Shown piece after piece: positions 1 through 7,613 of a DNA stretch of 7,613 nt. The position numbers and the translations under genes are program-made. Source of the stretch: Octopus sinensis (Eukaryota); contig NW_021826653.1 in NCBI RefSeq assembly GCF_006345805.1, positions 1-7,613 on the forward strand, written 5' to 3'. Every line of letters starts with the position of its first letter. The first letter of the stretch is position 1. Under the pieces are notes generated by a model. That model did not search any database. It was not told the origin of the DNA and saw nothing but the letters and a program-made list of their open reading frames with translations.

Positions 1-286
1 TTAGAAAATAACAAAAAAATAAAAAAAACAAATAAAAAACTTTAAAAATTTGTAAAATAGTATAAACAAAAAAAATCTCTGCGCCACGGCAACAACCTGT
101 CTAATTTTTTTAACAGCCAATTAAGATAATGCTTAAGAGCCTTTATAGTCCGGAGATTTAGCTTAGTGACCTTGATTAGACAAACCACTGGCGGAAATGG
201 GGCAGGCAGAGTAGCAGCAGCCAAAAAAAGCGACACACAAAAAAGATTTAATTAATTACCTTAAGCTGACCGTTTTTTCTTCAGCT

Positions 287-509
287 TCGTTTTTCCTCCT
301 TCGGTTATCTATTTAAAAATTATTTTTGAATAATAAAAAATATTAGGAAAAAAGAGGCATACAGAAAATAAATTCTATCTTTACGAAAAACTTCTTTTCT
401 AAGGTCGTCTTCCCTCCTTCGGTTATCTATTGAAAAAATTATTTTTGAATAATAAAAAGTTTAGGAAAAGAGGCATACCGAAAATAAATTCTATCTTTAC
501 GAAAAACTT
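287..509. repeat. Two-copy direct duplication, period ~117 bp
   Basis: 287-393 and 405-509 share 'cctccttcggttatctatt...ttatttttgaataataaaaa...gaggcatac.gaaaataaattctatctttacgaaaaactt' with a few substitutions and indels. Confidence 0.92.
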
Positions 510-605
510 AACTAAATAGTTAATATTTTTACGCAAATTCTTCTGATTGCGCTGTCAATTGGTGGTAAATTGTGTTAATGATTGTGCTAATGTAGTTTCA
601 ACTAT

Positions 606-624
606 AAAAAAAAAAAAAAAAAAA
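606..624 (+). repeat. Poly(A) tract (19 A)
   Basis: Seen directly; 'ctat' lies on both sides of the run. Confidence 0.95.
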
Positions 625-643
625 CTATCAAAGTGTTTTTCAA

Positions 644-707
644 AATCTGTTAATTGCACACTCTATTCAAGGTCGTGCAATCTGTAATTGCACATTCTAT
701 CAAAGTC
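644..707. repeat. Short imperfect direct repeat (~30 bp x2)
   Basis: aatctgttaattgcacactctattcaaggtc (644-674) vs aatctgtaattgcacattctatcaaagtc (679-707). Confidence 0.8.
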
Positions 708-777
708 AAATATGATAATAGCTTTAATTTTGATTCATGGTCGATAATGATATATGCATTTAATTTTAAAGAGAAAA

Positions 778-940
778 TCATAGGATGAATTGAATTTCTT
801 TATCGCGAATAATTGGGAGTTCATCATTGTTAATATTCTCGCTGTCGTTTTCATCAAGGATATTCTTAATACGTGAGATTTTTGCCTCGAAGGTTTTAAT
901 GGACCTCATCATGAATGTCGAGGACATTAACGTTGTTCAT
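778..940 (-). pseudogene. Possible frameshifted coding remnant of unknown protein, starting in the divergent outermost copy of the 94-bp array
   Basis: Removing one base near 900, which is an insertion relative to the other array units, gives MNNVNVLDIHDEVLKTFEAKISRIKNILDENDSENINNDELPIIRDKEIQFIL*. The ATG has an AAAATG context and 40 open codons follow the shift. No family recognised. Confidence 0.3.
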
Positions 941-1603
941 TTTAACCAAAATGCAGAAATTTTTTTTTAATTTTTTGGGGGGGAAGGTTTTAAGGACCTC
1001 ATCATGTAAGTCGAGGACATCGTAGTTGTTCATTTTAACTAAAATGCAGAAAATTTTTTTTTAATTTTTTGGGGGGGAAGGTTTTAAGGACCTCATCATG
1101 TAAGTCGAGGACGTCGTACTTGTTCATTTTAACCAAAATGCAGAAAATTTTTTTTTAATTTTTTTTGGGGGGAAGGTTTTAAGGACCTCATCATGTAAGT
1201 CGAGGACATCGTAGTTGTTCATTTTAACCAAAATGCAGAACATTTTTTTTTAATTTTTTTTGGGGGGAAGGTTTTAAGGACCTCATCATGTAAGTCGAGG
1301 ACATCGTAGTTGTTCATTTTAACCAAAATGCAGAAATTTTTTTTTAATTTTTTGGGGGGGAAGGTTTTAAGGACCTCATCTTGTAAGTCGAGGACATCGT
1401 ACTTGTTCATTTTAACCAAAATGCAGAAAATTTTTTTTTAATTTTTTTTGGGGGGAAGGTTTTAAGGACCTCATCATGTAAGTCGAGGACATCGTACTTG
1501 TTCATTTTAACCAAAATGCAGAAAATTTTTTTTTAATTTTTTTTGGGGGGAAGGTTTTAAGGACCTCATCATGTAAGTCGAGGACATCGTAGTTGTTCAT
1601 TTT
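889..1603. repeat. Tandem array of 93-95-bp units, 7 full copies plus a partial
   Basis: Unit 'gaaggttttaaggacctcatcatgtaagtcgaggacatcgtagttgttcattttaaccaaaatgcagaaa(a)T-run aa T-run G-run' starts at 889 (divergent), 983, 1077, 1172, 1267, 1360, 1455 and 1550. Length variation is mostly in homopolymers. Confidence 0.98.
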
Positions 1604-1666
1604 GCCAATTTGAAGTTGGTGTGCACACACAGACAGACACACACCATACCATTTTATTATTAAGAT
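1604..1666 (+). mobile_element. Possible terminus of a non-autonomous Helentron/HINE-like element (short hairpin, AC/AGAC microsatellite, AT-rich end)
   Basis: 'gccaatttgaagttggt' + 'gcacacacagacagacacacacc' + 'attttattattaagat' directly follows the tandem array. This resembles the core-repeat then microsatellite layout of HINE/DINE-1-type elements. No matching left end was found. Confidence 0.35.
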
Positions 1667-2132
1667 TGTATACAAATATAACTCTACACAACATGAAACT
1701 ACGAAATGGGCGCCCTTCAAAATTTTTATGGAGGATAAAAGAGATTCGGAGAGAACAGAAGATCAAATAAATGCATTGTTAATGTTCGACGGAACAAATG
1801 CAGAACTCAATGATGAGTCAAATTCGAATTATTTTGAAAATGACGATAAAAGAACTGAGAAACAAGTGCATGAAAACCTTGTTAAAGCTGGAGAGAAAAT
1901 GAAAAAACGTCGTAAGTGTAAATATGACGCAGAAGACATTGAAATTGGAGATACAGTACTGCTGAAACACGACAGGGATGATAACCCTGGTAACCGTAGA
2001 TACCCATTATATGACGAACTGGATATAAATAAGTACACAGTTTCAGAAAAATTTGAAACTACGTGTACTATTAATAAAGATAATGGAGAAACAGTATCAA
2101 ACGTGCATTTAAGTAGATTAAAAAAAATTTGA
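1656..2132 (+). mobile_element. 5'-truncated DDE integrase/transposase C-terminus (Ty3/gypsy- or Ginger-type)
   Basis: The frame of ORF 1728-2132 stays open upstream and reads IIKIVYKYNSTQHETTKWAPFKIF, matching the YNxxxHxxTxxxPF motif that ends retroviral-type integrase cores. It continues to EIGDTVLLK and NVHLSRLKK, typical of their C-terminal SH3-like region. The catalytic DDE part is absent. Confidence 0.8.
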
Positions 2133-2230
2133 TTAAAATTGTGATTTTTTTAAATGAATTAATTCTTATTTTTTATTGACTCCCATTAAAATAAATAAAA
2201 TTTCATTTATTTTTAAAATGTAAAGCACAA

Positions 2231-2314
2231 ATGTTTAAAACCGACACTGGCGTACCTCAGGGCGACTCGTTATCTCCGGTTCTATTCATAATCTACCTGG
2301 AGGCAGCCCTAAGA
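2231..2314 (+). mobile_element. Non-LTR retrotransposon (LINE-type) reverse-transcriptase fragment
   Basis: Translates MFKTDTGVPQGDSLSPVLFIIYLEAALR, the GVPQGxxLSPxLF motif. The downstream YADD motif is missing because the sequence switches to antisense ITPR. Not in the ORF track. Confidence 0.9.
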
Positions 2315-2664
2315 CCGCAATTTATAGTGAGGAACCACTACAAACCATGATTCGTCTTTTCCTTGACGACTCAAATAAACTGAAAGTGCATTCTTTTCTA
2401 CTGGTGCTTGAACACGCTGACTGCAAGATAGAAACTTGTTACTTTTAATGTGCAAAAACTTAATTTAATTTGCTTAAATTTTACTTGAATAATGGTTCCG
2501 TACTGTACTACTGTTCCTTGCAATTTTTCGTTTATGATTTCGTTGTGGTTAAATTCTGTTTGCACGGCGTCCTTAAAATCAACTAATAAAAGTCTAACGT
2601 GTAGTTTTTTAAGCAAAACTTCATTATTTTCTTCCAAGCCTTGAATTTGACACAAAAAATTCTT
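2312..2664 (-). pseudogene. ITPR: Inositol 1,4,5-trisphosphate receptor fragment (part of the N-terminal suppressor domain), 3 exon pieces
   Basis: Splicing GT-AG introns 2598-2572 (27 nt) and 2484-2459 (26 nt) gives KNFLCQIQGLEENNEVLLKKLH|DAVQTEFNHNEIINEKLQGTVVQYGTIIQ|FLHIKSNKFLSCSQRVQAPVEKNALSVYLSRQGKDESWFVVVPHYKLRS*. This is colinear with ITPR1 as I recall it ([85 protein letters not shown]). Truncated at both ends. Confidence 0.92.
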
Positions 2665-2667
2665 TAC

Positions 2668-3343
2668 GTCAAGCCATGAAATATCAGAAAGCAAAGGCAG
2701 GGCCTTTTGTTTGGCCTCAGAATTAAAACATTCTGAATTTTCAACGACACAATCAATCCACGAAATGTCGCAAGAATCAGGAGTTTGTATAAACTTTAAC
2801 GAATTTAAAAGCGAATCCTTCATTCTCACCTAATTTCTATTAAACTTCTAATAAAACCTGTAACATTGAAGAATCGCTTATGACGTCAATATTTTCAAAT
2901 ATTTTTGGAGAAAATGTCTTGCCAGAAACCAGCGAATTGGCAGAACAGTGACGAGTGAGAGAATTGGCACTCTCAGTACTAGAATGCACGAGAATCTAAG
3001 AAGACTAGCAATTCCATATTTACTAGATTTTTTGGCCTAATCTGCTGAAGGATCCTCCGAATAGAATCGCCATCAGACCTACCCTCAAAGTCGATAAAGA
3101 GTGATTTTGCCCGTACATCAACATGTCGGATTTCACTGGTATATTCCTCCACTGTGTTAAGCTCATAATAATTCTCAAACTCCTCAGATTTTATATTATC
3201 TAAAATAAATATTGCCAACAAAAACATTCTTCGTTAATTTTATCCTAATTTTAATAAAATATTTAAAACAACCTTTTTGTGAGGAATTTTCTTTTCATGA
3301 AACAAAGCACGACTAGAAAAAACAGTGAAAATGGGTAAAATAC
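2668..3343 (-). pseudogene. CPSF2: Cleavage and polyadenylation specificity factor subunit 2 (CPSF100) internal fragment, multi-exon
   Basis: Introns 3023-2996 and 2857-2830 (28 nt each) give [30 protein letters not shown]...FSPKIFENIDVISDSSMLQ|VRMKDSLLNSLKF...ISWIDCVV. This matches recalled CPSF2 motifs [29 protein letters not shown] and VRLKDSLVSSLQF...LAWIDGVL. Less certain upstream introns: 3225-3200 (26 nt), 3272-3245 (28 nt), 3343-3313 (31 nt). The N-terminal and extreme C-terminal parts are absent. Confidence 0.92.
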
Positions 3344-6300
3344 GAGGTCTCTAGATGTGTACATATGCGGGTTCTTGAGATTATGCAATAAATTACGTAA
3401 TATATTATGCAATTTTGGGAGGTCGCTAGATGTGAGCATATGTGGGTGCTTGAGATTATTTAATAAATTCCGTTATATATTATTCATTTTGGGAAGTCCC
3501 TAGATGTGAGCATATGGGGGTACTTGAGATTATGCAATAAATTACGTAATATATTATTTATTTTGGGAGCTCCCTAGATGTGAGCATATCTGGGTACTTG
3601 AGATTATGTAATAAATTACGTAATATATTATTTATTTTGGGAGGTCCCTAAATTTGAGCATATGGGGGTACGTGAGATTATGCAATAAATTACGTAATAT
3701 TTTATGCAATTTTGGGAGGTCCCTAGATGTGTACATATGAGGGTACTTGAGATTATGCAATAAATTACGTAATATTTTATGCAATTTTGGGAGCTCCCTA
3801 GATGTGAGCATATGCAGGTATTTGAGATTATGCAATAAATTGCGTAATATTTAATGCAATTTTGGGAGGTCCCTAGATGTGAGCATATGTGGGTACTTGA
3901 GATTATGTAATAAATTGCGTATTATATTATTCATTTTGGGAAGTCCCTAGATGTGAGCATATTGGGGTACTTGAGATTATGCAATAAATTACGTAATATA
4001 TTATTTATTTTGGGAGCTCCCTAGATGTGAGCATATGGGGTACTTGAGATTATGTAATAAATTGCGTAATATATTATTTATTTTGGGAGGTCCCTAGATG
4101 TGAGCATATGGGGGTACTTGAGATTATGCAATAAATTACGTAATATTTTATGCAATTTTGGGAGGTCCCTAGATGTGTACATATGGGGGTACTTGAGATT
4201 ATGCAATAAATTACGTAATATTTTATGCAATTTTGGAAGCTCCCTAGATGTGAGCATATGCAGGTACTTGAGATTATGCAATAAATTGCGTAATATATTA
4301 TGCAATTTTGGGAGGTCCCTAGATGTGAGCATATGTGGGTACTTGAGATTATGTAATAAATTCCGTAATATATTATTCATTTTGGGAAGTCCCTAGATGT
4401 GAGCATATGGGGTACTTGAGATTATGCAATAAATTACGTAATATATTATGCAATTTTGGGAGGTCCCTAGATGTGAGCATATGGGGGTACTTGAGATTAT
4501 GCAATAAATTACTTAATATTTCATGCAATTTTGGAAGCTCCCTAGATGTGAACATATGCAGGTACTTGAGATTATGCAATAAATTACGTAATATATTATG
4601 CAATTTTGGGAGGTCCCAAGATGTGAGCATATGTAGGTACTTGAGATTATGAAATAAATTACGTAATATTTTATGCAATTTTGGGAGCTCCCTAGATGTG
4701 AGCATATGTGGGTACTTGAGATTATGTAATAAATTGCGTAATATATTATTTATTTTGGGAGGTCCCTAAATTTAAGCATATTGGGGTACGTGAGATTATG
4801 CAATAAATTACGTAATATATTATTTATTTTGGGAGGTCCCTAGATGTGAGCATATGTGGGTACTTGAGATTATGTAATAAATTACGTAATATATTATGCA
4901 ATTTTGTGAGGTCCCTAGATGTGTACATATGCAGGTACTTGAGATTATGCAATAAATTACTTAATATTTCATGCAATTTTGGAAGCTCCCTAGATGTGTA
5001 CATATGCCGGTACTTGAGATTATGCAATAAATTACGTAATATATTATGCAATTTTGGGAGGTCCCAAGATGTGAGCATATGTAGGTACTTGAGATTATGT
5101 AATAAATTGCGTATTATATTATTAATTTTGGGAAGTCCCTAGATGTGAGCATATGGGGGTATTTGAGATTATGTAATAAATTGCGTAATATATTATGCAA
5201 TTTTGGGATGTCCCTAAATGTGAGCATATGGGGGTAGTTGAGATTATGCAATAAATTACGTAATATATTATGCAATTTTGGGAGGTCCCAAGATGTGTAC
5301 ATATGCGGGTACTTTAGATTATGTAATAAATTCCGTAATATTTAATGCAATTTTTGGAGTTCCCTAGATGTGAGCATATGTGGGTACTTGAGATTATGTA
5401 ATAAATTGCGCTATATATTATTTATTTTTGGAAGTCCCTCGATGTGAGCATATGGGGGTATTTGAGATTATGTAATAAATTCAGTAATATTTAATGCAAT
5501 TTTGGGAGTTCCCTAGATGTGAGCATATATGGGTACTTGAGATTATGTAATAAATTGCGCTATATATTATTTATTTTTGGAAGTCCCTCGATGTGAGCAT
5601 ATGGGTGTATTTGAGATTATGTAATAAATTCCGTAATATTTAATGCAATTTTGGGAGTTCACTAGATGTGAGCATATATGGGTACTTGACATTATGTAAT
5701 AAATTGCGCTATTTATTATTTATTTTTGGAAGTCCCTCGATGTGAGCATATGGGTATATTTGAGATTATGTAATAAATTCCGTAATATATTATGCAATTT
5801 TGGGAGGTCGCTAGATGTGAGCATATGTGGGTGCTTGAGATTATTTAATAAATTCCGTTATATATTATTCATTTTGGGAAGTCCCTAGATGTGAGCATAT
5901 GGGGGTACTTGAGATTATGCAATAAATTGCGTAATATATTATTTATTTTGGGAGGTCCCTAAATTTGAGCATATTGGGGTACGTTGAGATTATGCAATAA
6001 ATTACGTAATATTATTTATTTTGGGAGGTCCCTAGATGTGAGCATATGTGGGTACTTGAGATTATGTAATAAATTACGTAATATATTATTATTTTGGGAG
6101 GTCCCTAGATGTGAGCATATGTGGGTACTTGAGATTATGTAATAAATTACGTAATATATTAGCAATTTTGGGAGGTCCCTAGATGTGGACATATGCAGGG
6201 TACTTGAGATTATGCAATAAATTACTTAATATTCATGCATTTTGGAAGCTCCCTAGATGTGTACATATGCAGGTACTTGAGATTATGCAATAAATTACGT

Positions 6301-7613
6301 AATATATTATGCAATTTTGGGAGGTCCCAAGATGTGAGCATATGTAGGTACTTGAGATTATGTAATAAATTGCGTATTATATTATTAATTTTGGGAAGTC
6401 CCTAGATGTGAGCATATGGGGTACTTGAGATTATGTAATAAATTGCGTAATATATTATGCAATTTTGGGATGTCCCTAAATGTGAGCATATGGGGGTAGT
6501 TGAGATTATGCAATAAATTACGTAATATTTAATGCAATTTTGGGAGGTCCCTAGATGTGAGCATATGGGGGTACTTGAGATTATGTAATAAATTCCGTAA
6601 TATTTAATGCAATTTTGGGAGTTCCCTAGATGTGAGCATATGTGGGTACTTGAGATTATAATAAATTGCGCTATATATTATTTATTTTTGGAAGTCCCTC
6701 GATGTGAGCATATGGGGGTATTTGAGATTATGCAATAAATTACGTAATATTTAATGCAATTTTGGGAGGTCCCTAGATGTGAGCATATATGGGTACTTGA
6801 GATTATGTAATAAATTGCGCTATATATTATTTTTTTGGAAGTCCCTAGATGTGAGCATATGTGGTACTTGAGATTATGTAATAAATTCCGTAATATATTA
6901 TGCAATTTTGGGAGGCCCGAGATGTGAGCATATGTGGGTACTTGAGATTATTTCATAAATTCCGTAATATTTATTCATTTTGGGAAGTCCCTAGATGTGA
7001 GCATATGGGGTTGCTTGAGATTATGTAATAAATTCCGTTATATATTATTCATTTGGGAGTCCCTAGATGTGAGCATATGGGGTATTTGAGATTATGCAAT
7101 AAATTGCGTAATATATTATGCAATTTTGTGAGCTCCCTAGTGTTTGAGAAAATGGGGTTACTTGAGATTATAAAATAATTGCCTAATATTTTATGCAATT
7201 TTTCGGAGTTCCCTAGATGTGAGCATATGTGGGTACTTGAGATTATGCAATAAATTACGTAATATTTTATGCAATTTTGGGAGCTCCCTAGATGTGAGCA
7301 TATGCAGGTATTTGAGATTATGCAATAAATTGCGTAATATATTATCCAATTTTGGAAGCTCCCTAGGTGTGAGAAAATGGGGTTACTTGAGATTATAAAA
7401 TGAATTGCCTAATATTTTATGCAATTTTTCGGAGTTCCCTAGATGTGTATGGGGGTATTTGAGATTATATAATAAATTACGTAATATATTATGCAATTTT
7501 GGGAGGTCCCTAGATGTGAGCATGTGCGGGTATTTGAGATTATATAATAAATTACGTAATATATTATGCAATTTTGGGAGGTCCCTAGATGTGTACATAT
7601 GGGGGTACTTGAG
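3344..7613. repeat. Satellite DNA, 74/75-bp monomer, ~57 copies, runs off the window end
   Basis: Approximate consensus GGGAGGTCCCTAGATGTGAGCATATGGGGGTACTTGAGATTATGCAATAAATTACGTAATATATTATGCAATTTT (75 bp). 'ctagatgtg' recurs at 3351, 3426, 3500 and 3574. The 74-bp variants carry tattattta or tattattca in place of tattatgcaa. Copy number is estimated as length divided by period. Confidence 0.99.

Follow-up and report, generated by a model that had tools for sequence, protein, structure and literature searches.

The window (the whole stretch of 7,613 nt analysed here) carries on its reverse strand an internal fragment of CPSF2 that runs into an N-terminal fragment of ITPR, with a satellite array on one side and a LINE-like reverse-transcriptase scrap on the other (Table 1). 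In the original prediction, this region was read as a single spliced frame of seven exons adding up to 840 nt, and that reading holds: 279 codons are open as far as a TAG at 2311-2309. All six introns of the frame are GT-AG and 26-28 nt long. Four of the six (3272-3245, 3225-3200, 3023-2996 and 2857-2830) are absent from contig 12 of sequencing run X2, which we infer from these missing introns to be spliced RNA. Another, 2598-2572, corresponds to a 9-residue read-through insertion in the protein model XP_036354678.1 relative to all nine aligned ITPRs (9/9), and the last, 2484-2459, is a putative intron assigned by homology.

Table 1. Features of the window, with positions and strand
Feature	Position	Strand	Description
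75-nt satellite array	3344-7613	.	TRF; 57.5 copies in the window; abuts the copied segment bluntly
CPSF2 intron	3343-3313	-	31 nt, GT-AG; spliced X2 contig leaves the window at 3312; contigs 8 (X1) and 23 (X4) both stop at 3343
Internal CPSF2 fragment	3312-2668	-	Exons 3312-3273, 3244-3226, 3199-3024, 2995-2858, 2829-2668; four introns of 26-28 nt
CPSF2 intron remnant	2667-2653	-	15 nt, opens with the native GTA donor; 5 codons in the frame first predicted
Predicted hybrid intron	2667-2640	-	28 nt, native donor with nearest fitting AG
Deletion junction	2653/2652	-	Joints in X1 and X4; zero shared letters; about 989 nt of parent sequence absent
ITPR N-terminal fragment	2652-2313	-	Exon parts 2652-2599, 2571-2485, 2458-2313; introns 2598-2572, 2484-2459
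Reverse-transcriptase (LINE-like) scrap	2233-2316	+	84 nt; RVT_1 E 5.2e-5, below gathering score
Multi-copy element	1614-2190	+	172-codon open frame; abundant in X1 (high summed depth)
Tandem array	889-1603	.	95-nt unit, 7.6 copies, 95% matches

The upstream half of the frame matches residues 524-561 of human CPSF2 (E 6.9e-7), with a further weak match to residues 608-636 (E 0.51). Pfam profiles are covered in part, RMMBL at positions 2-34 of 63 and CPSF100_C at 2-37 of 163, both below gathering score, and exon 2995-2858 by itself has no PDB or Pfam match. Since the fragment lacks the metallo-beta-lactamase part, a full RMMBL and a full C-terminal domain, it does not belong with the CPSF2/CPSF100 proteins. 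The downstream half aligns to residues 85-171 of the human ITPR, with a match to ITPR1 residues 122-169 (E 7e-11), and hits Ins145_P3_rec (E 6.4e-12) up to profile position 155 of 213. With this domain incomplete and MIR, RIH and channel domains missing, it does not qualify as an ITPR either. The copied piece is thus without the catalytic-fold half of CPSF2, without a complete ITPR domain and without a start codon of its own.

The first exon had been drawn as 3311-3273; it actually begins at 3312. The spliced X2 contig leaves the window at that position, and therefore 3343-3313 is one more CPSF2 intron, which brings the introns of the copy to a range of 26-31 nt (mean 27.7, SD 1.7, n=7). When it is removed, the frame extends 39 codons into the satellite without a Met. 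The absence of a visible start, already remarked on, is borne out: the first Met of the frame is codon 122 and the only other is codon 127. The stop fared differently. ITPR sequence ends at 2313, and therefore the TAG that was thought to terminate a CPSF2-ITPR frame is supplied by the antisense strand of the reverse-transcriptase scrap. Two AATAAA/ATTAAA hexamers lie downstream of it, at 2211 and 2177. Both halves and the 840-nt frame are real; the apparent 279-codon gene is probably not a gene.

The switch from CPSF2 to ITPR had been placed inside one exon (at about 2668-2662), but the joint in the DNA lies at 2653/2652, 15 nt into a native CPSF2 intron. Contig 12 of X2 and contigs 14 and 15 of X3 (two runs from two studies) depart from the window at 2667, with identical letters, into a different next exon; read by eye, the departing sequence keeps the CPSF2 frame open for 10 codons. 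In contrast, the genomic X4 contig tracks the window through 2667 as far as 2653. The GT at 2667 is therefore the donor native to CPSF2, and the letters from 2667 to 2653 are what is left of an intron, a stub whose GC content is 0.20, versus 0.37 in the exons. The junction is also present in read data, as contig 7 of X1 (91 nt, depth 73) bridges 2653/2652 with 0 differences and with 38 and 53 letters on either side.

Because the parent CPSF2 uses the GT at 2667, an in-frame reading of the fusion requires that the native donor be ignored. If the copy were transcribed, this donor would be expected to pair with the AG 28 nt on. The resulting hybrid intron agrees in size with the other introns, and its removal breaks the frame, as had been remarked of a competing intron at 2667-2640, with a stop 26 codons later. 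Consistent splicing here had been named as evidence against the fused frame; the donor half of the event is seen in the parent in X2 and X3, and the splice to 2640 itself is predicted. Among the AGs between 2640 and 2572, five of six shift the frame. The only in-frame acceptor is 2572. Junction-crossing records are absent among four X2 and four X3 contigs, which come from a diverged organism and as contigs cannot show absence.

These data bear on the idea of an incipient functional chimera that would be transcribed from the satellite side, with donor 2667 either ignored or spliced to 2572 (96 nt) and with translation starting at Met 122 or further upstream. Such a product could use the open 279-codon frame, or 256 codons after the 2667-2572 splice, and the hexamers at 2211 and 2177. 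However, the native donor is in use in X2 and X3 and faces an acceptor at the ideal distance of 28 nt, the frame has no Met ahead of codon 122, each half covers its domains only in part, and the stop and poly(A)-like hexamers sit in unrelated AT-rich scrap. We regard a functional chimera of this kind as highly improbable on sequence grounds. Of the two readings first offered, an incipient gene or a chance in-frame join, it is the chance join that is supported, the incipient gene being disfavoured with donor 2667 in use. The probability that an unspliced join is open by chance was computed at 0.23-0.33.

The original account of the chimera had missed that the donor genes are neighbours, that a deletion joined them and that the break is intronic. 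In X4, a run from a relative, contig 23 (13,119 nt) carries CPSF2 directly upstream of ITPR, head-to-tail on one strand. Window positions 3343-2653 correspond to positions 1838-2528 of this record and 2625-2313 to 3545-3857. The two pieces are separated by 1016 letters in the record and 27 window letters are unaligned, leaving about 989 nt missing from the window; by our estimate, this length could hold what remains of CPSF2, a spacer and the roughly 76 ITPR residues that precede the window's piece in XP_036354678.1. The parental intron presumably begins at the G that corresponds to window position 3343. X4 contig 23 and X1 contig 6 both track the ITPR piece and continue past 2313.

Run X1 is near-identical to the window and may be its source sample. 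Depths in X1 are 147 for the CPSF2 piece, 73 for the junction and 81 for the intact joint, the last in a second contig that links both sides of the junction through different intervening letters and so represents the intact form. A 9,070-nt ITPR contig that carries 2644-2313 and continues beyond has a depth of 70 (about 67 after correction). The CPSF2 piece is thus at double depth and downstream ITPR at single depth, which argues that an additional copy, flanked by sequence of its own, is present about as often as the parent, although contig depth is a poor measure of copy number and these values come from the 8 of 760 X1 records listed. The intact parent in X1 is known from the joint depth and the 9,070-nt contig. 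Junction depth close to intact depth also means that the copy may be near fixation in the X1 sample, which would be compatible with selection and is a point on the side of an incipient gene.

The outer ends of the copy raise another possibility, namely a real internal deletion with misassembled flanks, in which a deletion allele or a collapsed repeat was stitched to the satellite and the LINE. Neither 3343/3344 nor 2313/2312 is bridged among the 8 of 760 X1 records listed, and contig 6 of X1 passes 2313 unbroken, without the window's letter at 2401; therefore, the ITPR-LINE join and its TAG are without read support. X1 also has only 0.68 of the sampled words. Against misassembly, contig 8 of X1, which carries CPSF2, ends exactly at 3343, a branch that is independent of the window's assembly, and a 9-kb ITPR contig at half the CPSF2 depth is not what a plain deletion allele would produce. 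In addition, the 4-nt overlap at the LINE joint resembles repair. Altogether, we consider misassembled flanks unlikely.

Three X1 contigs covering 2313-3343 have two listed differences from the window, at 2401 and 2708. Two more, at 2645 and 2675, are suggested by 30-nt contig overlaps, and XP_036354678.1 has Ser where the window has Ile (2646-2644). Counting all four, the copy would be about 0.4% diverged from its parent over 1,031 nt. Both listed differences (2/2) are non-silent and one replaces a Leu common to X1, X2 and X4, which counts against an incipient gene, though two to four derived changes are too few to show neutrality (P 0.63-0.40). Between the window and X4, there are 58 differences in about 1,004 aligned places. 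Of the 31 examined, 7 are intronic, 13 silent and 11 non-silent (two changes in a single codon scored separately), so that the silent share of exonic changes is 13/24 versus a neutral share of 0.21 (P=3e-4). Changes relative to X4 are thus mostly silent and those relative to X1 both non-silent, and therefore the visible constraint is that of the parent genes.

Judged from the sequence, the window piece very probably arose recently at the DNA level, as an incomplete duplicate of two adjacent genes, and most likely has no function. In support of this, the model XP_036354678.1 independently shows the same CPSF2 piece leading into the N-terminus of ITPR. The contigs strongly imply that about 2 kb over the 3' part of CPSF2 and the 5' part of ITPR was copied to a repeat-rich site, with the satellite on one side and the LINE-like scrap on the other, and that the parent locus was left intact. 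With about 989 nt missing (the rest of the CPSF2 intron, the end of CPSF2, the spacer and the start of ITPR), base 15 of the intron is joined to ITPR coding sequence, the unspliced join being in frame most likely by luck. The joints share 0, 0 and 4 letters, and end joining or a template jump during repair may have produced them. The exons, frames and tiny introns of the parents have been inherited almost unchanged. A processed (retro)pseudogene was rejected, as seven introns and an intron remnant are kept and there is no A-run at 2313.

On the right flank, satellite contigs of X1 begin at 3344. Copies of the satellite unit match at 86%, possible higher-order periods of 149 and 373 nt are present, the summed X1 depth of the array is very high, and one X3 contig matches its start. 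The first base of the copied segment, 3343, is the G of a GT donor; this may be chance, or it may allow transcripts from the satellite to be spliced into the CPSF2 exon. At the opposite end, ITPR and the reverse-transcriptase scrap share 4 nt (2313-2316). The family of the scrap has multiple copies in each of X1, X2 and X4; contigs from the latter two runs cover 2233-2316 in full, with a loose end at either side. Full-length relatives of the scrap extend past both of its ends. A Pack-type DNA transposon capture would have terminal inverted repeats and a target-site duplication around its cargo; none turned up in 1-3400 when the 25 longest inverted pairs (of 202) and the 20 largest direct families (of 40) were inspected, although an element extending beyond the window is possible.

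The copy would start on a splice-donor G if it had arisen by dicyemid-specific DNA handling (a re-integrated circle or programmed rearrangement) or by RNA-templated capture of unspliced read-through RNA, and a reverse-transcriptase scrap does abut its other end. Dicyemids are reported to rearrange their genome and to make extrachromosomal circles (PMC6543705). Every intron is kept, however, the ends of the copy show neither a poly(A) tail nor a terminal repeat, and the internal break does not coincide with a splice site. The scrap is, moreover, antisense. An antisense reverse-transcriptase fragment is unlike a simple template-switch chimera. By a rough estimate, one of four break ends would fall on a donor by chance in a few percent of cases. 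We consider this origin highly improbable. A literature search found no relevant paper on the elimination of repeats from dicyemid chromatin.

When the junction-spanning frame was used as a query, XP_036354678.1 was the one protein recovered among 318 candidates. This automatic model is labelled Octopus sinensis ITPR1-like and lies on an 854-kb contig. Its CPSF2 domains, Lactamase_B_6 and RMMBL, precede a complete ITPR N-terminus and MIR. Identity to the query is 78% where the two align, and its CPSF2 exon is the window's letter for letter. It keeps the ITPR N-terminus that the window lacks and does not contain the window's junction. Over 348 columns, its long-branched ITPR part is 58-62% identical to nine animal ITPRs, two of them from molluscs, that are mutually 72-90% identical, and therefore it is not an octopus gene. 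Residues 107-480 gave identities of at most 56% in the best 120 of 3,173 matches, and there was no close full-length relative in the best 150 of 981 representatives. The model is probably a mis-merged one of the adjacent intact genes that reads through a 27-nt intron, and a parasite contaminant. An octopus-labelled ITPR protein in RefSeq is thereby flagged.

The intron sizes (26-31 nt) and the octopus-labelled relative suggest that the source is a tiny-intron parasite, probably a dicyemid of octopus kidneys. Dicyemid introns are reported to have a median of 27 nt (PMC6543705) or a mean of 26.2 +/- 1.9 nt (PMC2222250), with splice signals reduced to GTa and AG (PMC13644364), and cephalopod kidneys are described as dicyemid habitat (PMC12953835). 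Repeats are given as 49% of the D. japonicum genome, with many LINE ORF2 copies (PMC6736024). Myxobolids likewise have median introns of 22-27 nt (PMC13644364); a myxozoan origin is thus possible on intron size, but the octopus label favours dicyemids. Our literature search found no relevant paper on Kudoa contamination of an octopus genome.

The closest known parallel in our comparison is Sdic of Drosophila melanogaster, described as a duplication over two adjacent genes (sw/Cdic-AnxB10) fused by deletions (PMC7475035, PMC3449122). As reported there, Sdic combines the 3' part of one gene with the 5' part of its neighbour through an internal deletion, keeps intact parents and has a non-LTR retrotransposon fragment alongside; that it arose by the same route is an argument for an incipient gene here. 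In the window, too, there are two genic donors, these are adjacent with an internal deletion, and the parent locus is intact alongside. Unlike the window copy, Sdic is expressed, has its own first exon, is tandemly amplified and affects sperm competition. The window copy, known from DNA alone, is single, has no start, carries a frame-breaking native donor and, if natively spliced, does not yield a complete frame that has a start of its own. It also resembles partial and chimeric duplicates (the classes of Katju 2012, and Qtzl), described as common among young animal duplicates (PMC3449122), in having two genic donors, a DNA-mediated origin and retained introns, but is more scrap-like and has satellite and retroelement flanks. 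For a CPSF2-ITPR1 fusion, the literature search returned no relevant paper.

The window thus resembles the first step of the Sdic route, and lacks a start and a frame that survives native splicing. We interpret it as a chimeric duplicate of the Sdic type, very young and most likely dead from the outset. As probable dead scrap it has little biological weight, but it offers a worked case of the Sdic route in which parent, copy and parent mRNA are all visible, and it illustrates how, in genomes whose introns are tiny, the stub of one intron can mimic an in-frame fusion. We think it very unlikely that the window has caught a chimeric gene at birth in a dicyemid, driven by the satellite and translatable via the 15-nt stub or the 2572 acceptor; in the boldest form of this proposal, a retroelement would have captured unspliced RNA from the splice-donor G. 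Were a live newborn chimera present, 27-nt introns and near-touching genes would let kilobase deletions easily yield fusion proteins, and in-frame junction transcripts would mark a newborn chimeric gene, a rare find, in a phylum that has received little study.

The remainder of the window is repetitive in several places. The multi-copy element at 1614-2190 has no X4 cover and one short X3 contig, and its 172-codon frame (1614-2132) has no Pfam match and no homologue among 268 candidates. It is possibly an integrase C-terminal region, a weak lead being the rank-13 Atlas cluster (score 0.92), in which 60% of members carry MLVIN_C. Ten other frames in 1-2150 gave no match at gathering score, and Rfam gave 0 matches on 1-3600. 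The left end of the 95-nt array grades into unique sequence near 880-950. Further left, at 287-509, a 116-nt direct repeat is present in two copies with 91% matches, beside an A-run at about 606-624.
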